From NCBI GenBank assembly GCA_003696765.1, contig RFFX01000040.1, positions 1-62,092 of the forward strand: 62,092 nucleotides of DNA. Direction: 5' to 3'. Under the pieces are notes generated by a model. It worked only from the letters and a program-made list of their open reading frames with translations. It was not told where the DNA came from and did no database searches. The DNA comes from Zetaproteobacteria bacterium. Its GTDB lineage: Bacteria > Pseudomonadota > Zetaproteobacteria > Mariprofundales > J009. A program made the position numbers and the translations under genes. Shown in pieces: positions 3,742-61,997 of the stretch; within the stretch, counting starts at the first letter, position 1, and every line of letters starts with the position of its first letter.

Positions 3742-3902
3742 GGCGGCGCGCGCCCGCCCCGCTCCGGGGCCGGGCAGCGGCCGGTCGTTTGCACCGCCGC
3801 CGCTGATCGTTTCACAATCGATGCGCCGATCGCTACCATGCACCACCCTGTTGCGGCGGGGGCGCCGGTTCGCCCGATCTCTTACGGAAGGTTTGCATCA
3901 TC

Positions 3903-6457
<2,555 letters not shown>

Positions 6458-9292: not shown

Positions 9293-9802
9293 TTGACGCC
9301 GAAGAAGCTGCTGGCCCGCTACTTCCCCGACCCCGAGTCGGTGCGGAACCACAAGCATCTGCGCTGCTTCGGCACCCTGCTGGCCAACCCCGGGCTGTGG
9401 CACGTCAACCGCTGTTCGGTGGCACGGGCCTTCGCCGTCGGGGTCTTCTGCGCCTTCATTCCCGTTCCGTTCCAGATGGTCCTGGCCGCCGGCGGGGCGA
9501 TCCTTTTCCACTGCAACATCCCCATCGCCGTGGCGCTGGTCTGGCTGACCAACCCGATCACCATGCCGCCGGTCTTCTACTTCTGCTATCGGGTGGGGGC
9601 GTGGCTGCTCGGCCTGCCGGCATCGGAACTCCCCTTCGAGGCCAATCTCGATTGGCTGGTGCATAGCATGATGCAGGCGTGGCAGCCCTTCCTGCTCGGA
9701 TGCCTGATTTGTGGTATTGTTTTTGCTTTGCTATCCTGGTGTGCCATCCACATCGCCTGGCGGGCGATGGTGGCACACAAGTGGAAGCGAAGGAGAGGTT
9801 GA
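9293..9802 (+). CDS. DUF2062-family membrane protein
   Basis: 169 aa, TTG start. ARAFAVGVFCAFIPVPFQMVLAAGGAILF...WLTNPITMPPVFYFCYRVG resembles DUF2062. Hydrophobic segments. Confidence 0.6.
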   Translation: MTPKKLLARYFPDPESVRNHKHLRCFGTLLANPGLWHVNRCSVARAFAVGVFCAFIPVPFQMVLAAGGAILFHCNIPIAVALVWLTNPITMPPVFYFCYRVGAWLLGLPASELPFEANLDWLVHSMMQAWQPFLLGCLICGIVFALLSWCAIHIAWRAMVAHKWKRRRG

Positions 9803-10710
9803 TGTTCATCACACAAACCCGGCAGCGCAACGTCTGGTCGTTCATCGTCGATGCCATCTCCGAGGCGGTGGGGGAGCCGTTCGTCATCCGGCAGCGGATG
9901 AAGGTGAGCGGCGGGAGCATCTGCTCCACCTTCAAGGTGGACGACGGCACCACCGCCTATCTGGTCAAGCTCCATCGAGCCGAGGCGCTCTGGGCCTTCG
10001 AGGCGGAACGCGCCGGGCTCGACCTGCTGCGGGCGGCGAGCGGCGCGCTGCGGGTGCCCGAGGTGGTCTGCACCGGCAGTGCACAGGATCGCTCCTGGCT
10101 GGTGCTGGAGTTCATCACGCTGCGTCCGGTGACCGATGAGAGCGCCGCCCGGCTGGGGGTGGCGCTGGCCGAGGTGCATCGCAAACTGGGGCCGCACTAC
10201 GGTTGGGATCGGGACAACGCCATCGGCTCCTCACGCCAGGTCAATACCCCCGACGATCGGTGGGCCAGTTTCTTTCGCGAGCAGCGTCTGGCCCGGCAGT
10301 TGAAGATGGCCGAGGAGAACCGCCTCGATATCGCGCTGTTGCGCAAGGGAGAGCTGGTGCTGGAGGCGTGCGACCGGATGCTGGAGGGGCATCAGCCCAA
10401 GCCGTCGCTGCTCCACGGCGATCTCTGGAGCGGCAATCTGGCGGTGGACGGCGAGGGCCGGGCGGTGTTGTTCGATCCGGCGGTCTACTACGGCGATCGC
10501 GAGTGCGATCTGGCCATGACCCGCCTCTTCGGCGGGGTGCCGGACTCCTTCCTGCGCGCCTACCACGACACCTGGCCGATCGACCACGGCTTCGAGCAGC
10601 GGCTCCACCTCTACAACCTCTACCACCTGCTCAACCACGCCAACATGTTCGGCGGCGGCTACGTCCGGCAGGCGGAGAAGGCGATGGACCGTATCCTGAT
10701 GTCGGTCTAG
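9802..10710 (+). CDS. fructosamine/ketosamine kinase family protein
   Basis: ATG 9802 overlaps the upstream TGA by 1 nt. LLHGDLWSGN and FDPAVYYGDRECDLAM are kinase-fold motifs of this family. Confidence 0.8.
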   Translation: MFITQTRQRNVWSFIVDAISEAVGEPFVIRQRMKVSGGSICSTFKVDDGTTAYLVKLHRAEALWAFEAERAGLDLLRAASGALRVPEVVCTGSAQDRSWLVLEFITLRPVTDESAARLGVALAEVHRKLGPHYGWDRDNAIGSSRQVNTPDDRWASFFREQRLARQLKMAEENRLDIALLRKGELVLEACDRMLEGHQPKPSLLHGDLWSGNLAVDGEGRAVLFDPAVYYGDRECDLAMTRLFGGVPDSFLRAYHDTWPIDHGFEQRLHLYNLYHLLNHANMFGGGYVRQAEKAMDRILMSV

Positions 10711-13349: not shown

Positions 13350-13877
13350 CTACAGCGCGTTCAGGTTCTGCCGTGCCACCTGGTAGTCGGGATCGATGCG
13401 CAGCGCCTGCTCCAGTTCGGCACGGGCGCGGTCGCGGTCGTAGGGGCGGTTGCGTTGGTAGTAGGCGACGCCGAGGTCGTTGTGGTAGAGGGCGCTGCCG
13501 GTACAGAGGCGGACGCTGTTCTGCAGCAGGTAGACCTTCCGTTCGATATCGCGTGTCTTGAGCGCGGCGTTGTATTGCCGTTCGGCGGCGGCGCAATCGT
13601 CGAAGCTGCGCGGCGCGGCCTGCGCCGGCGGCCGGGCGTTGCCCTTGCCGATCTGCTTGCCCAGCAGGTAACCGCCCAGGGCGCCGATGATCGCGCCCTG
13701 ACCTGCGCCGCCGCGGCGGTTGACCTGATGGCCGATGACCGCACCGGCACCGGCGCCGATCAGGGCGCCGAGCACGCCGCTGTCGGCCGCCGTCGCCGGC
13801 GCGGGCAGGGAGGGCAGGGCGAAGAGCGCCAGCACGGCGGCGGCGATGCGTGGGAGGATGGGGACAGAATCCGTCAT
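13350..13877 (-). CDS. secreted glycine-zipper plus TPR-like protein
   Basis: 175 aa. Signal-like AAAVLALFALPSLPAPATA, glycine zipper GALIGAGAGAVIG...GAIIGALGGYLLG, and a TPR-like tail (YHNDLGVAYYQRN...ALRIDPDY). Confidence 0.6.
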   Translation of the reverse strand: MTDSVPILPRIAAAVLALFALPSLPAPATAADSGVLGALIGAGAGAVIGHQVNRRGGAGQGAIIGALGGYLLGKQIGKGNARPPAQAAPRSFDDCAAAERQYNAALKTRDIERKVYLLQNSVRLCTGSALYHNDLGVAYYQRNRPYDRDRARAELEQALRIDPDYQVARQNLNAL

Positions 13878-13908
13878 GATCGAGTCGCAAAACGTCCGTC
13901 CATGGAGC
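13878..13908 (-). repeat. FDTGH repeat family, partial copy (half H module)
   Basis: The minus strand reads CTCCATGGACGGACGTTTTGCGACTCGATC, directly followed by the ATG of the glycine-zipper gene. Confidence 0.6.
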
Positions 13909-14133
13909 CTGCAGCATCACGGTGGATCGAGGCGTCTGCTCGACCCCTTCGGATCTGGCGGCCGCGGCTGCGGCCGCAGGCCCGGCACGCTGTACCGCAG
14001 CCTCCTTGCAGCGGCGTGGCCGGACGCAGGGGAATGGTCCCACGGGTCCGTGCCGCTGTCAACCGGATGCCGCCCCTCCGACCGGGGGCGGCGCGCCATT
14101 CTCAGGTCCCTTCGGCCCGGCTAGCATTGGGCG

Positions 14134-15072
14134 GTGGTGATCGACCCCGAAGAGACGGCGCATCTTCCGCCGCCGGGTGTTCCCGGCTGGTGGGCCGCCC
14201 GCAGTTGGCGGCAGCGGCTCAACGTGATGCTGTTCGATTTCACCTGCCGTATCGGGCGGATCGTCAACTACACCATCGGAGTCTTCATCCTCTCGGCGGT
14301 GCTGATCTCGATGACCGACTCGGTGCCCTACTACCACGACCACTACGCCCGGCCGTTGGGGCTGTTCGAGGATCTGGTCACCTTCGTCTTCGCCGTGGAG
14401 TATCTCCTGCGGGTCTACTCCGCCCGGCGCCCCTTCACCTACATCTTCAGCTTCAACGGCATCGTCGATCTCACCGCCGTCCTGCCGCTGCTGATCGGCG
14501 AGGACTCGACGCTGGTGATCCGGCTGCTGCGTGTGGTCCGCCTGATCAAGCTGACCAGCTATCTGCCGGCGCTGACCGCCCTCTTCCGCTCGCTCACCGA
14601 CGTGGTGCATCTGATGCTGGCGGTGCTCTCGGTCATCATCCTGATGTCGCTCTTCGCCGGCAACCTGATCTACATCGTCGAGCCGGAGACCTTCCATACC
14701 GCCTTCGAGGGGGCGTGGTGGAGCCTCGTGACCATGAGCACGGTGGGGTATGGCGATCTCTACCCCACCACGGCGGCGGGGCGTCTGATCGCGGTGGCGG
14801 TGATCCTCTCGGGCATCACCATGTTCGCCATGGCCACGGCGGTGGTCTCCGTCCGGGTCGGGCGCCACCTCTACGAGCAGATCCACTGCCCCGCCTGCAA
14901 CCACAGCGTGGCCGAGGATCACATCTACTGCCCGCATTGCGGCATCAGGCTGGAGATCGGTGATCCGGTCGATGAGAAGCCCGATTTCCATCGACGGGAC
15001 AGAGGGGTTGAGGCGGCCGCCGGTCGGGCGGAGGCTCCGCGGGGGGAGGCAACGCAATCGGATCGGAAATGA
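14134..15072 (+). CDS. voltage-gated-type (6TM) potassium channel with C-terminal zinc ribbon
   Basis: S4-like RLLRVVRLIKLTSY, selectivity filter TVGYGDLYP, and C-terminal CPACN...CPHCG. GTG start. The TGA lies inside repeat module F. Confidence 0.85.
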   Translation: MVIDPEETAHLPPPGVPGWWAARSWRQRLNVMLFDFTCRIGRIVNYTIGVFILSAVLISMTDSVPYYHDHYARPLGLFEDLVTFVFAVEYLLRVYSARRPFTYIFSFNGIVDLTAVLPLLIGEDSTLVIRLLRVVRLIKLTSYLPALTALFRSLTDVVHLMLAVLSVIILMSLFAGNLIYIVEPETFHTAFEGAWWSLVTMSTVGYGDLYPTTAAGRLIAVAVILSGITMFAMATAVVSVRVGRHLYEQIHCPACNHSVAEDHIYCPHCGIRLEIGDPVDEKPDFHRRDRGVEAAAGRAEAPRGEATQSDRK

Positions 15073-15228
15073 CGACTTCGCAAGAAGTCGGCATCCGCGA
15101 CCAGGATGGTCGCGCAAATCCGGAGGTTGCGCATGCAAGCGACGGATTTGTAAGGCGATCGAAGAGCGCGCTCTTCGATCGCCGTCAAGCAAAAAGTCCA
15201 CGGACGGACTTTTTGCGATTCGATCAGG
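15069..15228 (+). repeat. FDTGH repeat family, full copy (reference copy)
   Basis: Modules in order: ATGACGACTTCGCAAGAAGTCGGCAT / CGCGACCAGGATGGTCGCG / CAAATCCGGAGGTTGCGCATGCAAGCGACGGATTTG / GGCGATCGAAGAGCGCGCTCTTCGATCGCC / CAAGCAAAAAGTCCACGGACGGACTTTTTGCGATTCGATC. Confidence 0.9.
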
Positions 15229-15390
15229 AGTGATGGTTTCGCAAGAAAGCATCATCGCGGCCAGGACGGCCGCGCAAATCCGAAGCTTGCGCATGCAAGC
15301 GACGGATTTGTAAGGGGATCGAAGACCGCGCTCTTCGATCCCCGTCAAGCAAAAAGTCCACGGATGGACTTTTTGCGGTTCCATTAGGAG
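15229..15390 (+). repeat. FDTGH repeat family, full copy (head-to-tail with previous)
   Basis: All five modules are present. The copy ends TTAGGAG, 12 nt before the guaB ATG. Confidence 0.9.
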
Positions 15391-15393
15391 TAA

Positions 15394-16875
<1,482 letters not shown>

Positions 16876-23551: not shown

Positions 23552-24517
23552 CTACTGGGGGGCGCGCTCCAGCAGCCGCCGGATGCCGGTGGGAAGGGCG
23601 ACCTCGTCCGGGTGGACCCACCGCCCCGGGGGATCGGGCGGAGCATCGGTGCAGAGGAGATAGAGGTGGAGCCGGCGGTGGGTGAGGCGGTGGAGCAGGT
23701 CGGGGCGGCGATCCGCCGTCGGTGTGATCGGCTCGATCGGCGGTGTCCACATGCCGCCCCAGATCGCATCCGCCGGGCGCCGCACCATCCAGATGCCGCG
23801 CTCGGGATGGCGGTGGATGGAAACGCGCCAGTGCAGATCGCGCACGGCCGCTCCAGCCCGCGCCGGCGCGGGCTGGAGCGGCCGGTCGGCGCCGGCGCAA
23901 ACGGGCCGCAGCGGGCAGGCGCCGCAGGCGGCGGTGCGCGCCCGGCAGAGGGTGGCGCCGAGCTCCATCATCGCCTGGTTCCACTCGGCGGGGTCGGGCG
24001 CGCGCCCGATGGCATGTGAGGCCAGCCGCCACAACGTGCTGTCTGCGGCCGTTGCGGCATCATGCCAGCGGGTCAGCACCCGGCGTACGTTGGCGTCGAG
24101 CACCGGCCGGCGTTGTCCGAAGCAGATCGAGGCGATGGCGCCGGCGGTGGAGCGACCGATGCCGGGCAGGGCGAGGATCTCGGCGAACGCTTCGGGGAAG
24201 CGCCCGTGATGGCGCTGCATGATCTGCCCGGCCGCGGCGTGGAGCAGCCGCGCCCGCCGGTAGTAGCCCAGCCCCTGCCACGCCTTGAGCACCTCCGCCT
24301 CGTCGGCGGCGGCCAGCGTCGGTAGGTCGGGAAACCGCGCCAGCCAGGTATCGAAGCGGGGCAGCACGGTGGCCACCTGGGTCTGCTGCAGCATGACCTC
24401 GGAGATCCAGATGCGGTAGGGGTCGCGGGTGCGGCGCCACGGCAGGTCGCGTCGGTGGCGGCGGTACCACGCCGGCAGCGCCGTCTCCGGATCGGTGTCG
24501 TATTGATCAGAGTGCAA
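23552..24517 (-). CDS. mutY: A/G-specific adenine DNA glycosylase
   Basis: HhH-GPD (LPGIGRSTAGAI) and Fe-S cluster cysteines (CRARTAACGACPLRPVC). The start is ambiguous: either TTG 24517 (5 nt after GGAGG, inside an H repeat module) or GTG 24556 (GTGA overlap with the upstream stop). Confidence 0.88.
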   Translation of the reverse strand: MHSDQYDTDPETALPAWYRRHRRDLPWRRTRDPYRIWISEVMLQQTQVATVLPRFDTWLARFPDLPTLAAADEAEVLKAWQGLGYYRRARLLHAAAGQIMQRHHGRFPEAFAEILALPGIGRSTAGAIASICFGQRRPVLDANVRRVLTRWHDAATAADSTLWRLASHAIGRAPDPAEWNQAMMELGATLCRARTAACGACPLRPVCAGADRPLQPAPARAGAAVRDLHWRVSIHRHPERGIWMVRRPADAIWGGMWTPPIEPITPTADRRPDLLHRLTHRRLHLYLLCTDAPPDPPGRWVHPDEVALPTGIRRLLERAPQ

Positions 24518-24549
24518 AACGTCCCTCCATGGACGTGTTGCGATTCGAA
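24514..24549 (+). repeat. FDTGH repeat family, solo H module (antisense to flanking genes)
   Basis: GCAAAACGTCCCTCCATGGACGTGTTGCGATTCGAA. Confidence 0.75.
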
Positions 24550-24552
24550 GCG

Positions 24553-25506
24553 TCACATGCCACGGAAGACGAAGCCTCCGGCCACCACCTCGAAGGTGAG
24601 GAAGAAGCTGGCCCGATCCAACCCCCAGGCCGAGGGGAGCGGGCGGAAGGGGGCTGCGTCGTGGATCGCCCGGATCGCGCTGTCGTTGAGCGCCGCGATC
24701 GGGCTGGGGCGGAGGATCTCCACCGCGGCGAGCGAGCCGTCGCGGTCGATGCTCAGCTTGAGCAGCACGCGGCGATCCTGCTCCGGGTGGTCGGCGTAGT
24801 CGGCCTGTCCGGGGCGCCACTGCTCCTCGAGCGCATCGACCAGCGCGTGGGCGTAGGAAGCGTACTTCTCCTCGCGGGTGTTGATCGGGATGTTGGCCTC
24901 GCGCCGGGGGAGGTGGCGCGCGCGGGTGCGATCCCGTTGCGGGGAGCGTCGGGCGAAGGGGAGTGCCGATGGCATCAGTTGCGCCAGCGGGATCGGCCGC
25001 AGCATCGGCTTGGGTTTGGGCGCCGGCTTCGGCGGCGGCAGGGGCTCGGCCTTTTTGTGTCGGTGCAGTCGCGGTTGCCTCTGCTCCGCCTTCGGTGCCG
25101 GCTTGTTGCGCCGTCTCGGGGTCGGCAGCGGCGGGACGCGCGGTGCGGGCAGCGGTCGGGGCGGGGACGGCGGTTGCGGGCGTGGGGTGACCTGTGGGGC
25201 GCGGGCGATGCGGTCGATGGTATCGTGCAGCTTGGGTGCGGCCCCCTTCACCGTCTGGTTGGCGATGATCCGCGCCTGGTCGTTGCGCAACCTCTTCTGC
25301 CTTTTCGGCTGTTGGAACAGCACCACATCCATGATCCGGGGCTCGCGCCGCACCTCTTTGGGGGGGTGGCCGTGGCGCAGGCCGATGATGGCGATCAGCA
25401 GCAGGTGGAGCAGGATGGAGGCGATCAGGGCGCGCAGCAGCAGCGGATCACGGCGGCGCCACCGGGGGAAGGAGGGGGGCAGGGCGGTCGCGTTCACAAG
25501 GCGCAA
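24553..25506 (-). CDS. TonB C-terminal-domain (TonB/TolA-like) protein
   Basis: N-terminal TM segment, Pro/Lys-rich spacer, and C-terminal LKLSIDRDGSLAAVEILRPSPIAALNDSAIRAIHDAAPFRPLP. Confidence 0.7.
   Translation of the reverse strand: MRLVNATALPPSFPRWRRRDPLLLRALIASILLHLLLIAIIGLRHGHPPKEVRREPRIMDVVLFQQPKRQKRLRNDQARIIANQTVKGAAPKLHDTIDRIARAPQVTPRPQPPSPPRPLPAPRVPPLPTPRRRNKPAPKAEQRQPRLHRHKKAEPLPPPKPAPKPKPMLRPIPLAQLMPSALPFARRSPQRDRTRARHLPRREANIPINTREEKYASYAHALVDALEEQWRPGQADYADHPEQDRRVLLKLSIDRDGSLAAVEILRPSPIAALNDSAIRAIHDAAPFRPLPSAWGLDRASFFLTFEVVAGGFVFRGM

Positions 25507-26491: not shown

Positions 26492-26495
<4 letters not shown>
26061..26495 (-). CDS. NusG domain II-containing (DUF1312) protein
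   Basis: VRIYHGNRLIARYPYP...IAPEGVRMIHAPCGSQQCVASG...DMIVCLPNRISVLI. The GTG start overlaps the hppA stop (GTGA). Confidence 0.62.
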
Positions 26496-28495
<2,000 letters not shown>

Positions 28496-28504
28496 CTGCT
28501 ACCT

Positions 28505-28590
28505 GATCGCAACAAGTCCGTCCATGGACTTTCCGGCCGCACGGGAATCGAAGAGCGCGGCCTTCACTGTTGAGCGAAGCCCCGATCAGC
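28505..28590 (-). repeat. FDTGH repeat family, degenerate partial copy (H, G, possibly F remnants)
   Basis: GATCGCAACAAGTCCGTCCATGGACTTTCC...GGGAATCGAAGAGCGCGGCCTTC...GAGCGAAGCC. Confidence 0.55.
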
Positions 28591-28639
28591 CAGACCGAAC
28601 TGCGCCATCGCAGCGGCTACCGTCCGCCCTTCGGCGGCG

Positions 28640-29893
<1,254 letters not shown>

Positions 29894-29921
29894 CGGTCGG
29901 GTTTCCTTTCCTCGGAGTGTT

Positions 29922-30079
29922 GATGGAATCGCAAAAAGTCCGTCCGTGGACTCTTTGGCTGTACGGCGATCGAAGAGCACGCTCTTCGATCCTCTTACAA
30001 ATCAATCACTTGCTTACGCAGGCTCTTGATTTGCGCGGCCGTCCATGGTCGCGATGATGGCTTCTTGCGAAGCCGTCAT
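29922..30079 (-). repeat. FDTGH repeat family, full copy
   Basis: Reverse complement of all five modules. The T outer stem reads CAAATCAA/TTGATTTG. The F end contains the stop of the lipoprotein gene. Confidence 0.88.
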
Positions 30080-40078: not shown

Positions 40079-40186
40079 GCCGCCGCGCTTGTCGATGGCG
40101 GCTGATCCCCTGCTTGCCTTTCGCCCCCGCTCTCCTAACCTGTGGTGCCGGTCCGGTTCCGGATGGGGATGCCCCTCCTCCGGAAG

Positions 40187-40260
40187 CGATCCTGCCGCCT
40201 GTGCTCTTCGATCTCCGTCGAGCAAAAAGTCCACGGACGGACTTTTTGCGATTCGATCAG
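40187..40260 (+). repeat. FDTGH repeat family, partial copy (degenerate G plus H)
   Basis: CGATCC...GCTCTTCGATCT...GAGCAAAAAGTCCACGGACGGACTTTTTGCGATTCGATC. Confidence 0.75.
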
Positions 40261-40262
40261 CA

Positions 40263-40422
40263 ATGACGGCTTCGCAAGAAGCCGGCAGCAGCGGCCAGGA
40301 CGGCCGCGCAAATCCGGAGGTTGCGCATGCAAGCGACGGATTATGTAAGGCGATCGAAAACCGCGTTTTTCGATCGCCTTCAAGCAAAAAGTCCACGGAC
40401 GGACTTTTTGCGATCCCATCAG
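40263..40422 (+). repeat. FDTGH repeat family, full copy
   Basis: All five modules. The G arms read CGATCGAAAACCG/CGTTTTTCGATCG. Confidence 0.9.
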
Positions 40423-40423
40423 C

Positions 40424-40460
40424 AATACGGTCCATGGAGGGACGGTTTGCGATTCGATCG
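40424..40460 (+). repeat. FDTGH repeat family, solo H-like module
   Basis: ATACGGTCCATGGAGGGACGGTTTGCGATTCGATCG, ending 4 nt before the leuD ATG. Confidence 0.65.
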
Positions 40461-40463
40461 AAC

Positions 40464-41111
40464 ATGCAGCCGTTCACCGTTCATGAGGGGTTGGTGGCGC
40501 CGATGGATCGGGCCAATGTCGATACCGACGCCATCATCCCCAAGCAGTTCCTCAAATCGATCCGCCGCAGCGGATACGGCGCCTATCTGTTCGACGAGTG
40601 GCGCTATCTCGATCAGGGCGAGCCGGGGATGGATTGCAGCAAACGGCCGAAGAATCCCGACTTTGTGCTCAATCAGCCGCGCTATCGGGGGGCGACGATC
40701 CTGTTGGCGCGGGAGAACTTCGGCTGCGGTTCGTCGCGCGAGCATGCGCCGTGGGCGCTGCTCGACTACGGCTTCCGCTGCATCATCGCTCCCTCCTTCG
40801 CCGATATCTTCTACGACAACTGCTGCAAGAACGGCATCCTGCCGCTGACCCAGCCGGCGGAGGTGGTCGACCGCCTCTTTGCCGAGTGCGCAGCGCAGGA
40901 GGGCTACCGGCTGCGGGTCGATCTGCCGGCCCAGCGGTTGACCCTCCCCGATGGAACGACCTTTGCCTTCGGGATCGATCCCTTCCGCAAGCGGCGGCTG
41001 GTCGAGGGGCTGGACGACATCGCTCTGACGCTGGAGCACGCCGATGAGATCCGTGCCTTCGAGCGGCGCCACTTCGCTGCCCATCCGTGGCTGGTGGAAG
41101 CCGCCGCTTGA
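40464..41111 (+). CDS. leuD: 3-isopropylmalate dehydratase small subunit
   Basis: ATG 40464. [14 protein letters not shown] and [17 protein letters not shown]. Confidence 0.93.
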
Positions 41112-45382: not shown

Positions 45383-45390
<8 letters not shown>

Positions 45391-46033
45391 TTCCACACCC
45401 ATCCGCATCGCGCTGCCCAAGGGGCGGCTGCTGGGGCAGGTGGTGCCGTTGCTCGAAGCGGCGGGGCTGGCCCCCGACGGAGAGGGGATCCGCAGCCGCA
45501 GGTTGATCCTCCCCGGGCCGGAGGGGTACTGCTTCCTCATCATCCGGGCGGCCGACGTCTGCACCTTCGTCGCCCGCGGAGCCGCCGATCTGGGCATCGT
45601 CGGCCGTGACCTGCTGCTCGAGAGCGACCCCGATCTCCATCAGCCGCTCGATCTGGGGATCGGCCGCTGCCGGCTCTGCGTGGCGGTGCCCGAGCATGGC
45701 GGGGATCCGCTGGCCCGGCCTCCTGGCAGCGTGGTACGTGTGGCGACCAAGTACGACCGGCTGGCAGCCGGCTTCTTCATGCAGCGCGGCCTGCAGGCGG
45801 AGATCATCCACCTCTACGGCTCGATGGAGCTGGCGCCGCTGGTCGGGATGGCCGACTGCATCGTCGATCTGGTCGAGACCGGCTCCACGCTGCGGGCCAA
45901 CGGCCTGGTCGAGCGGGCGACGCTGTTCGAGATCTCCAGCCGGCTGGTGGTCAATCCGGTCAGTGCGGTGCTGCGGCGGGCGGAGATCGAGCCGGTTATC
46001 GACCGTCTGCGCCGATGCGTGGAGCAATGGTGA
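45383..46033 (+). CDS. hisG: ATP phosphoribosyltransferase (short form)
   Basis: 216 aa. IALPKGRL and LVETGSTLRANGL. The TTG start overlaps the murA end. The TGA lies in repeat module F. Confidence 0.93.
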
Positions 46034-46185
46034 CGGCTTCGCAGGAAGCCGTCAGCGCGGCCATGGGTGGTCGCGAAATCCGGAGGCTGCAGAGGCAAGC
46101 GACGGATTTAGTAGGGGGATCGAAGAGCGCGCACTTCGATCCCCGTCAAGCAAAAGTCCACGGGCGGACTCTTTGCGATTCGATC
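46030..46185 (+). repeat. FDTGH repeat family, full copy
   Basis: All five modules. F starts GTGACGG and contains the hisG TGA. Confidence 0.88.
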
Positions 46186-46219
46186 AACGCTGACGGGCAA
46201 CTTTCGTAAGGATAGGCGT

Positions 46220-48591: not shown

Positions 48592-48750
48592 GTGATGGTT
48601 TCGCGAGAACCCATCATCGCGGCGTCGGCGTGCCGCGTAAAACCGAAGCTTGCGAATGCAAGCGACGGCTTTGGAAGGGAATCAAAGAGCGCGCTCTTCG
48701 ATTCTCGTCAAGCAAAAGGTCCATGGACGGACGTTTTGCGATTCGATCCG
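48592..48750 (+). repeat. FDTGH repeat family, full copy (diverged)
   Basis: All five modules. The F loop is GCGA. The copy ends 4 nt before the hisB ATG. Confidence 0.85.
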
Positions 48751-48752
48751 AG

Positions 48753-49390: not shown

Positions 49391-49551
49391 ATGATGGTTT
49401 CGCAAGCAGCCATCATACGCGACCAGGACGGTCGCGCAAATCCGGAGGTTGCTCTTGCAACCGATGGATTTGTAAGGCAATCGAAGACCGCGCTCTTCGA
49501 TTGCCGCCGAGCAAAAAGTCCATGGACGGACTTTTTGCGGTGTGATCAGGA
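49391..49551 (+). repeat. FDTGH repeat family, full copy
   Basis: All five modules. The G arms read CAATCG/CGATTG. The 3' tail GATCAGGAG supplies an SD-like sequence for the next ORF. Confidence 0.9.
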
Positions 49552-49557
49552 GTGGCG

Positions 49558-49884
49558 ATGAAGGTCAACAATGCGAACCTTGCAGCGCTGAGCAACATCA
49601 CGGTCCAGCAGGAGGTTTCGGCCAACAATGTCGCCAACCTGCTGACCCGGGGCTATCGGGCTGCGCGGGCGCTGCAGCAGGGGGACCGGGTGACGGTCAG
49701 CCCGGAGATGCGCGCCGCGATCCAGCGCAACGAAGCGGCCAGCAGCGCCGCTCCGTCGCCCAGCGATGCCGCGACCGAGCAGGTCCGTATGCGGCGCAAT
49801 GAGGCGGCTTATACCGCCAACCTCAATGCCATCAAGACCCGCGATGCCCTCTACAAGGCGCTGGATGATTTGAACAAGGGGTGA
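49558..49884 (+). CDS. small flagellar basal-body rod-like protein (FlgB/FlgC-type termini)
   Basis: 108 aa. ATG 49558 lies 5 nt after GGAG. N-terminal SANNVANLLTRGY fits the rod signature N-[LIVM]-[SA]-N-x2-T-x-G-[FY] with one mismatch. C-terminal EQVRMRRNEAAYTANLNAIKTRDALYKALDDL resembles the rod C-terminal motif. Confidence 0.55.
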   Translation: MKVNNANLAALSNITVQQEVSANNVANLLTRGYRAARALQQGDRVTVSPEMRAAIQRNEAASSAAPSPSDAATEQVRMRRNEAAYTANLNAIKTRDALYKALDDLNKG

Positions 49885-54957: not shown

Positions 54958-55381
54958 AGAAGGGGCGCACCACCACCAACACCACCGCCAGGATCAGCCC
55001 GAGCGTCGGCAGTTCGTTGTAGATGCGGAAGAAGCGCTCGCTGTGGGGCGGTGCGCCCCGGGCGAAGCCGGTCGTCATCCGACCGCAGTGCAGATGGAAG
55101 ACGATCAGCCCCAGCACCACCGCCATCTTGGCGTGGAACCAGCCCGCATCCACCAGCCACGCCCAGTTCATCGACGCCATGGTGGCGCCGCAGATCAGGG
55201 TGATCACCATCGCAGGCCACATGATGAAGCGGTGGAGCCTGCGTTCCATGATGCAGAACTGCTCGTGCAACACCCCTTCGGGGTGGCGGCTGTGGTAGAC
55301 GAAGAGGCGCGGCAGATAGAAGAGGCCGGCGAACCAGGCCACCAGCGCGATGATGTGCAGCGCCTTGATCCAGAGATACAT
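54956..55381 (-). CDS. hemJ: protoporphyrinogen IX oxidase HemJ (UPF0093 family)
   Basis: 141 aa, 4 TM segments. LHIIALVAWFAGLFYLPRLFVYH...FHAKM. Confidence 0.8.
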   Translation of the reverse strand: MYLWIKALHIIALVAWFAGLFYLPRLFVYHSRHPEGVLHEQFCIMERRLHRFIMWPAMVITLICGATMASMNWAWLVDAGWFHAKMAVVLGLIVFHLHCGRMTTGFARGAPPHSERFFRIYNELPTLGLILAVVLVVVRPF

Positions 55382-55384
55382 ATT

Positions 55385-55540
55385 GTTCGACCGCAAAACG
55401 TCCGTCCGTGGACGTTTTGCTTGACGGGGATCGAAGAGCGCGGTCTTCGATCCCCTTACAAATCCGTCGGTTGCATCTGCCACCTCCGGATTTGCGCGGC
55501 CGTCCATGGCCGCGATGCTGGTTTCTTGCGAAGCCAGCAT
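55385..55540 (-). repeat. FDTGH repeat family, full copy
   Basis: Reverse complement of all five modules. H reads AAAACGTCC/GGACGTTTT. Confidence 0.9.
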
Positions 55541-55698
55541 CGATTCGACCGCAAAACGTCCGTCCGTGGACGTTTTGGCTTCACGGGGATCGAAGAGCGC
55601 GGTCTTAGATCCCCTTACAAATCCGTCGGTTGCGTCTGCAACCTCCGGATTCGCGCGGCCGTCCTGGTCGCGATGTCGGCTCCGCAGGCGGCCGTCAT
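55541..55698 (-). repeat. FDTGH repeat family, full copy (head-to-tail with previous)
   Basis: Reverse complement of all five modules, with F degenerate. The F end contains the stop of the CcsA-family gene. Confidence 0.85.
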
Positions 55699-56519
55699 GG
55701 ATGCAGTTCGGCCATGATGAAGCGCGAGCCGAAGTAGGCGAGCAGCATGGTGAGGTAGGTGCCGATCACCAGGTAGCTCGAGGTCTTGTTGCGCCACGAT
55801 CCCCGGCGGTGCGCCAACGCGATGATCAGCAACAGGATCCATGCGAGGAAGGAGAGCAGTACCTTGTGGCTGAGCAGGGCGAAGTGCCCCCATGCCACCC
55901 ACTGCCAGCTCAGGCCGGTGAGGATGCCCGCCCCCAGCAGCCACAGCGCACCGCGTACCTGGGCGAACATGTGCCGTTCGATGTCGGTCAACGGCGGCAT
56001 GGCACGGATGAGCGGATGGATCCGTTTCGCTTTCAGCGCCCGGTCGAGCAGTAGATGCATCACCGCATGGAGCGCCGACAGGGTCGCCACCGCATAGGCG
56101 CTCATCGACAGCGCCAGGTGGCTGGCCTCCAGCCAGGAGTCGGTCTCCAGCCAGCTTCCCCGGTGGCCGGTGGGGAGCAGCGGCGTCAGGATCAGGGCGA
56201 GGCCGGTCACCGGCAGCAGGATCATGCCCAGCCCGTGGATGCCATGGCGCAGCAGCCCGATCAGGTAGATCAACTGCACCAGGAATGAGGCGCTGGCCGC
56301 GGCATCGATCAGGGTGAAACGAATGCCGAGCGGGCTGCTCGGTGCGGCTCCGATCGCCCCGATCAGGGTGAAGAAGAGCGAGATCGAAACACAGGTGGCG
56401 ATCAGCGGCTGCGGCTCTTTGGTCGGCAAGGGACGATCGAGCGCGCGGGCCCAGAGCAGCCATGCGGCGACCAGCGAGACGGCGCCGGCCAGCGGGAAGA
56501 GGATCAGGGTGGCGGACAT
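55695..56519 (-). CDS. cytochrome c assembly (CcsA/YpjD-family) membrane protein
   Basis: 274 aa, polytopic, with a Trp/His-rich C-terminal half (LSWQWVAWGHFALLSHK). The stop lies in repeat module F. Confidence 0.7.
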   Translation of the reverse strand: MSATLILFPLAGAVSLVAAWLLWARALDRPLPTKEPQPLIATCVSISLFFTLIGAIGAAPSSPLGIRFTLIDAAASASFLVQLIYLIGLLRHGIHGLGMILLPVTGLALILTPLLPTGHRGSWLETDSWLEASHLALSMSAYAVATLSALHAVMHLLLDRALKAKRIHPLIRAMPPLTDIERHMFAQVRGALWLLGAGILTGLSWQWVAWGHFALLSHKVLLSFLAWILLLIIALAHRRGSWRNKTSSYLVIGTYLTMLLAYFGSRFIMAELHP

Positions 56520-56557
56520 CGGTCGCGATGATCGCGGATCGCGCAACCGGCATCAAG

Positions 56558-56716
56558 GATGACGGCTTCGCAAGAAGGTGGCATCCGCGGCGTTGGCGTG
56601 CCGCGCAAATCAAGAGCTTGCGAAGCAAGCGATCGATTTGTAGGGCAATCGAAGAGCGCGCTCTTCGATTGCCTTCAAGCAAAACGTCCATGGACGGACG
56701 TTTTGCGATTCGATTG
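56558..56716 (+). repeat. FDTGH repeat family, full copy (antisense to flanking genes)
   Basis: All five modules on the plus strand, between two minus-strand genes. Confidence 0.88.
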
Positions 56717-56762
56717 AGAATACTCCCCTCACAAAAAGAGCATCAGGGATCGTATGGCCGGT

Positions 56763-61690: not shown

Positions 61691-61800
61691 TCCTCCTCCC
61701 GGGGTGGAGATTCCTGCCACGGTGGGACGGGCGGTTCGGTGGAGCACCCACGAGGACAGGGTGGGGCATGATACCATGCCCCCGCGCGCCGCTCAATGGT

Positions 61801-61912
61801 GATCAAACCGCAAAACGTCCGTCCGTGGACTTTTTGCTTGACGGCGATCGAAGAACGCGCTCTTCGACCCCCTTACGAATGCACCGATTGCATGCGCAAT
61901 CCCCTGTTTTGT
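61801..61912 (-). repeat. FDTGH repeat family, partial copy (H, G, degenerate T)
   Basis: GATCAAACCGCAAAACGTCCGTCCGTGGACTTTTTGCTTGACGG / CGATCGAAGAACGCGCTCTTCGACC / CCTTACGAATGCACCGATTGCATGCGCAAT. Confidence 0.75.
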
Positions 61913-61997
61913 ACAACCGGACGGGATGGCACGTATTGGGAGTACGGGGCGGACCGGTGCAGCATGGTGGGTCCCCTTCGCGGTTGGGGGTGCGCTT

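Follow-up and report, generated by a model that had tools for sequence, protein, structure and literature searches.

Setting and fold of the repeat

The stretch of DNA analysed here (the window) is the whole 62,092-nucleotide contig RFFX01000040.1 of a zetaproteobacterium assigned to the Mariprofundales (GenBank assembly GCA_003696765.1), with a GC content of about 69% and a GuaB 73-78% identical to those of Mariprofundus and other Zetaproteobacteria. Between the end of an open reading frame (ORF) at 14134-15072 and the guaB start codon (ATG at 15403) lie two head-to-tail copies of a repeat unit of about 160 nt, which folds into five successive hairpins, here called F, D, T, G and H; positions 15095-15225, where the structure was originally noticed, are the body of the first copy. 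A search of the window with a covariance model of the unit, built with 55 base pairs over the five hairpins, found 11 full copies, seven on the + strand and four on the - strand, together with at least four degenerate ones. This amounts to about one copy per 4 kb, in both orientations and inside operons, with a second tandem pair at 55380-55698 (- strand). Full copies are referred to below by their first coordinate, and coordinates of all features are collected in Table 1.

The stems are of 11 bp (F), 7 bp (D), 8+6 bp (T), 12-13 bp (G) and 11 bp (H). Folded as RNA, copy 1 has a minimum free energy of -87.8 kcal/mol (z = -9.3 against dinucleotide shuffles). No Rfam family matches at its gathering score anywhere in the window.

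Relatives in other genomes were collected by two pattern scans, one anchored on H and the other on the D/T/linker region, yielding 61 (H-anchored) and 85 (not H-anchored) model-aligned copies, 146 in all, from more than 30 genomes. The five-hairpin unit is abundant in the iron-oxidising Zetaproteobacteria, including the isolate Mariprofundus erugo P3. It also occurs in Desulfurivibrio dismutans and related genomes, in metagenome-assembled genomes (MAGs) of Desulfobacterales and in a few gammaproteobacterial MAGs, from which we infer that the family has spread horizontally between phyla. Searches of a plasmid collection and of viral contigs found nothing.

The repeat as a transposable element

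The repeat is a non-autonomous transposable element, specifically one of the miniature inverted-repeat transposable elements (MITEs), a point not recognised in the earlier sequence-only reading of this locus. MITEs are a known kind of element; this one represents a new family of structured MITE. When its boundaries are found by anchoring on conserved columns, the element proper occupies unit positions 3-156 (154 +/- 1 bp), has the form GA(C/T)GAC...(G/C)ATC, and ends in imperfect 19-bp terminal inverted repeats (TIRs), unit positions 3-21 being about 80% complementary to 156-138 over the 146 copies. It is flanked by a target site duplication (TSD) of exactly 6 bp in 60 of 135 copies, or 79 of 135 if one mismatch is allowed, and no other length fits more than 10 copies. 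A word of at least 7 nt is common to both junctions of the same copy in 51% of cases, against 5.5% in mismatched controls. An earlier delimitation, in which the ATGA at the start of the unit was part of the element and the TSD was 7-9 bp long, was rejected, since anchoring on conserved columns gave the exact 6-bp duplication.

Reconstructed empty sites give a palindromic target, tC|AWNNAT|Ga, in which one strand reads ATG and its complement CAT. This accounts for copies lying at start codons or where a stop and a start overlap as ATGA. The first bases of the element often complete an upstream TGA (30076-78, 46031-33, 55695-97, and 15070-72, where the initial GA of copy 1 completes the stop codon of ORF 14134-15072), and the duplication together with the terminal GA/TC restores the stop and start codons of the neighbours. 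A palindromic ATG target combined with codon-restoring ends is a neat way to insert harmlessly between tightly packed genes. The junctions also recreate the target, hence tandem arrays with a period of 154 + 6 = 160. The AGGAG in the “tail” of the window copies was considered as element sequence and rejected: it derives from the host, being the guaB Shine-Dalgarno sequence.

One clean comparison of a filled and an empty site is available. At L184, a syntenic locus of a related MAG that is 73-80% identical over 5 kb, a copy at a gene's start codon is flanked on both sides by CAATAATG; the orthologous position in the window, at about 9800, has no insertion. The insertion in this locus (L184:3050-3222) parts the gene from its Shine-Dalgarno sequence, and the upstream duplicated ATG opens a frame of 54 codons through the antisense element, ending in a TAA that overlaps the true ATG (TAATG). 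Such an arrangement would permit translational coupling; copy 1 of the window is similar (ATG...TGATG), and the arrangement is not general across copies.

The element is non-coding: it holds no conserved ORF, and insertions and deletions shift the frame between copies. A small protein-coding ORF was tried as an explanation and rejected, copy 1 being readable through for 53 codons while copy 2 and others stop early. An element of IS200/IS605 type, or a REP/BIME element mobilised by a RAYT, both of which are single short palindromes lacking TIRs and a TSD, was likewise rejected in view of the TIRs, the fixed 6-bp TSD and the five hairpins. Pairs of inverted ends 0.6-3.5 kb apart, considered as candidate autonomous insertion sequences (ISs), belonged to separate MITEs that had ordinary genes lying in between.

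Derivatives of reduced length that retain the ends occur repeatedly: a 46-bp form with H only, an F+H form of about 80 bp, forms of about 125 bp, and a 130-bp form lacking G. Because these recurrent derivatives keep the ends without them, transposition probably does not require hairpins D, T and G. The 46-bp form is an H hairpin between two right-end sequences, resembling a REP palindrome (L016:1394-1439, L050:558-603, L062:1008-1053, L065:2968-3013, L029:2781-2826); examples of the F+H form are L006:2678-2757, L023:758-837 and L054:2228-2311. A second repeat family (L034:4255-4385, with a similar sequence in L048 at about 3780-3930) has the same ends, an F-like start and an H-like end with an ACGGAC loop, and differs in its internal hairpins (GGGGAAAGGATTCCCC, CGCGGTTTCCAACCGCG); the ends thus appear common to several internal “cargo” modules. 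Longer copies, of 220-235 nt, carry a nested GC-rich insert of about 60-75 nt with two or three small hairpins (e.g., TCCAATCCGGCTTCCTGCCGGATTG), which lies, in one orientation or the other, within the G loop or immediately behind T and is probably a second tiny mobile element (L046:866-1101, L058:171-402, L028:3320-3554, L008:2558-2791, L165:3836-4069, L205:3743-3977, L216:6300-6534, L219, L222).

Compensatory changes in the stems

The sequence-only reading had proposed that both arms of a stem usually change together between copies, and every variant it cited is present in the window sequence. In G, GGCGATC..GATCGCC (15069, 40263) is replaced by GGGGATC..GATCCCC (15229, 46030, and 55380 and 55541 on the - strand), and the next pair has the form GGCAATCG..CGATTGCC in copies 49391 and 56559. 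In H, AAAAAGTCC..GGACTTTTT alternates with AAAACGTCC..GGACGTTTT (55380, 55541, 56559), with one-sided intermediates in 48592 (G.G) and 61797 (A.G). The corresponding alternatives are CAAATCCG..CGGATTTG and CAAATCAA..TTGATTTG in T (the latter in the 29918 copy), and CGCGACC..GGTCGCG and CGCGGCC..GGCCGCG in D, where two copies (29918, 55541) have a one-sided A.C intermediate. The variation described in the F stem is also there, apart from a supposed G-U wobble in the 55380 copy, which is a C.A mismatch on the element strand and had been read on the + strand of the window. The window copies are mosaics of the H, G and T variants.

Variation is wider outside the window. The two unpaired positions on each side of T form a tandem G.A in the window family, and the same positions elsewhere are UG/CA, UA/UA, GC/GC, AU/AU or UG/UG; since paired forms replace the G.A there, T forms a single uninterrupted helix, and its covarying pairs increase by two. 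The G stem differs almost wholly in sequence between lineages with its pairing kept. In the low-GC zetaproteobacterial copies, the commonest state two pairs beneath the H hexaloop AYGGAY is a G.A mismatch (GGCC...GGAC; 47 of 85), with U-A, G-C and C-G variants also occurring at that position.

Do these paired changes exceed what independently mutating arms would produce, the comparison that had been suggested as a test of the idea? In both sets of relatives they do, by a wide margin. In the H-anchored set 96.2% of cells are paired, and double changes are found in 24 pairs and 206 cells (shuffles: 17.0 and 56). In the set not anchored on H, they are found in 33 of the 55 pairs and in 174 cells (shuffles: 13.4 and 47.5), including 8 of the 11 H pairs, and sliding the partners leaves 13-18 pairs; in neither set do any of 500 shuffles reach the observed values. 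Because shuffles ignore relatedness, three phylogeny-aware checks were added. Of the variable pairs, 13 of 28 in one set and 9 of 38 in the other have their structural partner as the mutually best-correlated of 160 columns, where chance would give less than one. On neighbour-joining (NJ) trees, same-branch changes in both partners number 62.5 and 48.3, where permuted partners give 11.4 and 6.1, and about 48 and 38 of these double changes keep the pair. Under an R-scape-style null, in which the substitutions of each branch are re-placed on random columns, the summed G of the 55 pairs with average product correction (APC) is 649 against 3 +/- 42 and 641 against 9 +/- 50 (z ~12-15), with 6 and 8 pairs individually significant in the two-set test (E<=0.05). 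Paired columns, moreover, change 2-3 times more slowly than unpaired ones.

The 11 window copies taken alone (alignment A4) give weaker evidence in the same direction as the 146-copy result. Paired cells make up 93.5%, against 88.2% in shuffles, and 17 of the 55 pairs change on both sides, against 8.4 expected and 1-5 with slid partners; both values lie beyond all 500 shuffles. Same-branch co-changes on the NJ tree number 23.6 (permuted partners: 3.4, at most 9.2), the summed APC-corrected G is 86 (tree-based null: 3 +/- 11, at most 30), and one pair is individually significant at E<=0.05.

The five hairpins are thus kept, on one strand, by dozens of independent compensatory substitutions. Covariation stands above the background of shuffles, slid partners and the tree-based null once many copies are aligned, and with some 40-50 independent pair-keeping double changes it does not reduce to a few recently copied subfamilies. 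The earlier suggestion of selection on secondary structure rather than on primary sequence is supported by this covariation, with the caveat that primary sequence is under constraint as well, the AYGGAY loops, the linkers and the TIRs being conserved. Part of the covariation in F and H (CGCAA versus CGTAA) reflects two transposon ends changing together. For the same reason the F loop (GCAA, GUAA or GAAA) was not counted as independent support for a GNRA tetraloop, the C/U in it covarying with the outer H pair through their position in the two transposon ends.

AYGGAY loops and a possible role for CsrA

Among the 85 copies not anchored on H, the D loop is A[CT]GGA[CT] in 69 and the H loop in 67, as hexaloops closed by C-G. 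The binding consensus of CsrA/RsmE is CANGGANG, and the D and H loops match it, making both candidate binding sites. The near-matches in Rfam, all below threshold, are confined to the CsrB clan. RsmW scores highest in the window (31.9 bits, E = 0.0011; its gathering score is 52); with TwoAYGGAY (gathering score 43), D aligns to hairpin 1 (19.2 bits) and H to hairpin 2 (19.1 bits), at E ~1.2.

Two of the collected zetaproteobacterial loci carry a csrA homologue; the 62-kb window contains none. One homologue (L193:540-725) is 52% identical to E. coli CsrA, and an antisense 130-nt copy of the element without hairpin G lies 33 nt downstream of it (L193:758-887); in the second locus, L191, a copy lies 2 kb from csrA. 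Two csrA genes in the little DNA collected around elements seems more than chance would bring, though the sample is tiny.

A tentative prediction from the loop sequences is that the element acts as a CsrA-binding module. It would then be a portable, compactly folded module in 5' leaders and intercistronic regions, which would put neighbouring genes under CsrA control or titrate CsrA. A more specific and more doubtful version is that the module is horizontally mobile as such: insertion at a start codon would set two predicted high-affinity hexaloop hairpins 0-40 nt upstream of a gene, rewiring or titrating the CsrA regulon, and TwoAYGGAY may do likewise in other phyla.

Which molecule is under selection?

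On the strand of the covariance model, G·U pairs outnumber A·C about 3:1 (GU+UG versus AC+CA, 117:41 and 206:70), and in 112 of 123 copies RNA of that strand folds more stably than its complement, the mean difference being 8.5 kcal/mol (p = 3.5e-20). A DNA cruciform does not fit this one-sided wobble and stability, since it would need both strands. Simple consensus scans found no sigma-70-like promoter and no intrinsic terminator in the element on either strand, so any element RNA would come from read-through. Within the window, 10 of 11 copies are sense to the flanking genes, GC skew keeps its sign, and a start codon follows 0-30 nt after the end of at least eight copies, full or degenerate. 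The molecule selected, we infer, is most likely RNA, read through as part of host transcripts. The best explanation overall, and in our estimate a reasonably probable one, is a MITE whose hairpins are selected at the RNA level, perhaps as a CsrA module.

Several observations weigh against that explanation. The sense bias fails family-wide: a general bias was suggested by the first 61 copies (28:8) and was lost in the second set (16:26), the combined ratio of sense to antisense copies between co-directional genes being 44:35, or 12:23 if lower-GC hosts are taken by themselves (all with crude gene calls). The excess of G.U over A.C is higher on internal branches (4:1, 2:1) than on terminal ones (1.8:1, 1.1:1), which also fits selection on propagating “master” copies and hence a role in mobility. 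Only 0-2 pairs are individually significant among all 12,720 column pairs in the R-scape-like test, per-pair power being modest, and fitting the alignments to the covariance model tilts them towards the structure it encodes. All Rfam scores fall below their gathering thresholds. About 1.5 Mb of collected loci, and likewise the plasmid collection and the viral contigs, yielded no autonomous IS with matching ends, whole genomes not having been scanned for one.

Some of these points bear directly on the possibility that transposition depends on the hairpins as DNA structures, with a transposase or host factor recognising folded single-stranded DNA or cruciforms at or near the ends, and covariation reflecting selection on master copies. 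Both the internal-branch excess, which is paralleled by a higher ratio of kept to broken double changes there, and the absence of a family-wide sense bias would be expected in that case; F and H each consist of a terminal inverted repeat and its internal complement, and G.T is the best-tolerated mismatch in DNA hairpins. Against it, TIRs and a fixed 6-bp TSD point to a cut-and-paste or copy-paste enzyme of DDE type acting on double-stranded ends, the wobble tolerance is one-sided where a cruciform needs both strands folded, and D, T and G, which seem dispensable for movement to judge from the shorter derivatives, covary most strongly; a DNA-level role for the hairpins is therefore considered rather unlikely. 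Without any selection, the paired changes might come from a mutational process on quasi-palindromes (intra-strand template switching in replication) or from gene conversion among copies, as the mosaic of H, G and T variants in the window and the occurrence of double changes on single branches, terminal ones included (29 kept versus 6 broken), could suggest. Template switching should erase mismatches, however, and the G.A in H and the tandem G.A in T persist; it predicts no strand asymmetry, yet the 3:1 ratio holds whatever the orientation to host genes; and it leaves unexplained the conserved asymmetric AYGGAY loops and the slower change of paired columns. A purely mutational “palindrome correction” is thus quite unlikely. 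Least probable of all, and scarcely to be credited, is a set of ordinary chromosomal small RNA (sRNA) genes of Csr/Rsm or TwoAYGGAY type, amplified by duplication and not transposable: the sub-threshold RsmW and TwoAYGGAY matches, the two GGA loops per unit and the occasional tandem arrangement of Rsm genes are in its favour, and are outweighed by the copy-specific 6-bp TSDs, the inverted-repeat ends, the filled and empty orthologous site, the lack of a detectable promoter or terminator, the Rfam scores, and a density of about one per 4 kb in both orientations and inside operons.

Comparison with known systems

The searchable literature (MITE with CsrA; repeats of Zetaproteobacteria or Mariprofundus) gave no description of this element family. 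Its closest precedent is bcr1 of the Bacillus cereus group, reportedly described by Okstad in 2004 and by Klevan in 2007. This is a dispersed, non-coding repeat of about 155 bp with 5-bp direct repeats and a distribution that is not conserved (PMC3184786); it is transcribed into RNA whose multi-stem fold is maintained by compensatory base-pair changes (PMC3184786; Delihas, 2011 review). The likeness, which is one of function and architecture only, lies in size, flanking repeats and kept RNA fold. The differences are the phylum, a two-stem “cruciform-like” fold in bcr1 versus five hairpins here, the absence of reported AYGGAY loops in bcr1, and the TSD and target.

The orphan motif TwoAYGGAY (RF01731; Weinberg 2010) has two AYGGAY loops as its defining feature (PMC2864571); it was later predicted to be a CsrA binder and noted for tandem G.A pairs in a stem (PMC4333381). 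Like the element, it has two AYGGAY-loop hairpins and a tandem G.A and is multi-copy in some genomes. In TwoAYGGAY, however, a P1 stem encloses two adjacent hairpins. In the element, D is separated from H by about 100 nt that hold T and G, F comes before them, there is no P1, and the ends fold locally into F and H; the host taxa also differ. Psychromonas ingrahamii (NC_008709) has several TwoAYGGAY copies among other repeats (PMC2864571 supplement), and the “very large P1” of the motif, which reaches 24 bp, could represent TIRs; this motif too may then be MITE-borne. The Csr/Rsm sponge RNAs (CsrB, RsmX/Y/Z, RsmW; clan CL00106) resemble the element in carrying GGA in hairpin loops closed by C-G. 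They differ from it in that the element has only two GGA loops (C-ANGGAN-G), no promoter or terminator of its own that could be found, and many dispersed copies with transposon ends. Because it fails the Rfam thresholds and lacks their defining architecture, the element is not filed under TwoAYGGAY or the Rsm RNAs; it may still work like them.

Among other bacterial repeats, Correia/NEMIS in Neisseria and ERIC in Enterobacteria are likewise 100-160-bp MITEs with inverted-repeat ends and TSDs, which are co-transcribed with their neighbours and fold as RNA. They form mainly one long hairpin made by the ends and duplicate TA, unlike the five local hairpins and the 6-bp palindromic, ATG-containing target found here. 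Mycobacterial MIRUs also lie between operon genes, often in tandem, with ends that overlap the stop and start codons of their neighbours, but they are minisatellite units of 46-101 bp with small ORFs and neither inverted-repeat ends nor TSD, while the element has no conserved frame.

A very dense intergenic repeat of Zetaproteobacteria is thus a transposable element with a constrained internal fold, several copies of which stand directly before housekeeping genes such as guaB. In annotation, its hairpins should not be called terminators, attenuators or sRNA genes. The family offers a testable case of a mobile element bringing ready-made, predicted protein-binding RNA hairpins into operons, and a clue to what the orphan TwoAYGGAY motif does.

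Distribution within the window

Table 1. Copies of the element and associated features in the window (CM, covariance model)
Feature	Position	Strand	Remarks
MITE copy 1, first of tandem pair	15071..15225	+	Element proper 155 bp; CM match 15069-15229, 168.7 bits; TIR/TSD boundaries
Hairpin F of copy 1	15069..15094	+	11-bp stem, GCAA loop
Hairpin D of copy 1	15096..15114	+	7-bp stem CGCGACC/GGTCGCG, loop AGGAU
Hairpin T of copy 1	15115..15150	+	8+6 bp around tandem G.A/G.A
Hairpin G of copy 1	15154..15183	+	13-bp stem, variable loop; strongest covariation of the stems
Hairpin H of copy 1	15189..15216	+	11-bp stem, loop ACGGAC
AGGAGT, left 6-bp TSD of copy 2	15226..15231	+	Junction common to copy 1
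MITE copy 2, second of tandem pair	15232..15385	+	154 bp; CM match 15230-15389, 180.9 bits
AGGAGT, right TSD of copy 2	15386..15391	+	The host's own guaB Shine-Dalgarno sequence
Full copy	29918..30079	-	Sense to both flanking (-) genes; TSD AACAAT/AACACT, 5/6 match
Full copy	40263..40424	+	Perfect TSD AGCAAT; preceded by degenerate copy 40080-40262
Full copy	46030..46189	+	TGA stop of ORF 45383-46033 at junction
Full copy	48592..48752	+	Directly followed by ATG (ATGATTCGACAATCACGC...)
Full copy	49391..49551	+	Adjoins start of ORF 49552-49884
Full copy, second of - strand tandem pair	55380..55540	-	
Full copy, first of tandem pair	55541..55698	-	5' junction holds TGA stop of ORF 55695-56546
Full copy	56559..56719	+	The only one of 11 antisense to flanking genes
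Copy with degenerate 5' part	61797..61946	-	F/D hairpins replaced; 86.7 bits
Degenerate copy	13874..14020	-	3' end adjoins ATG of ORF 13350-13877
Degenerate copy (G/H part)	28496..28613	-	Directly upstream of ATG of ORF 26492-28495
Weak degenerate copy	24501..24624	-	22 bits
Empty site	9790..9810	+	Orthologous position in related L184 filled, flanked by duplicated CAATAATG

In copy 1, the left terminal inverted repeat is made up of the 5' arm and loop of hairpin F, and the right one of the 3' arm of hairpin H together with 15217-15225. An extra H-like hairpin (ACGGTCCATGGAGGGACGGTTTGCGATTCGATCGAACA), at about 40425-40466, directly follows the full copy at 40263, giving a three-part array with the degenerate copy in front of it.

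Many MAG contigs start or end inside the element (L008, L025, L032, L043, L060, L153, L171, L181, L202, L204, L230), which is thus a frequent assembly breakpoint in zetaproteobacterial metagenome bins.

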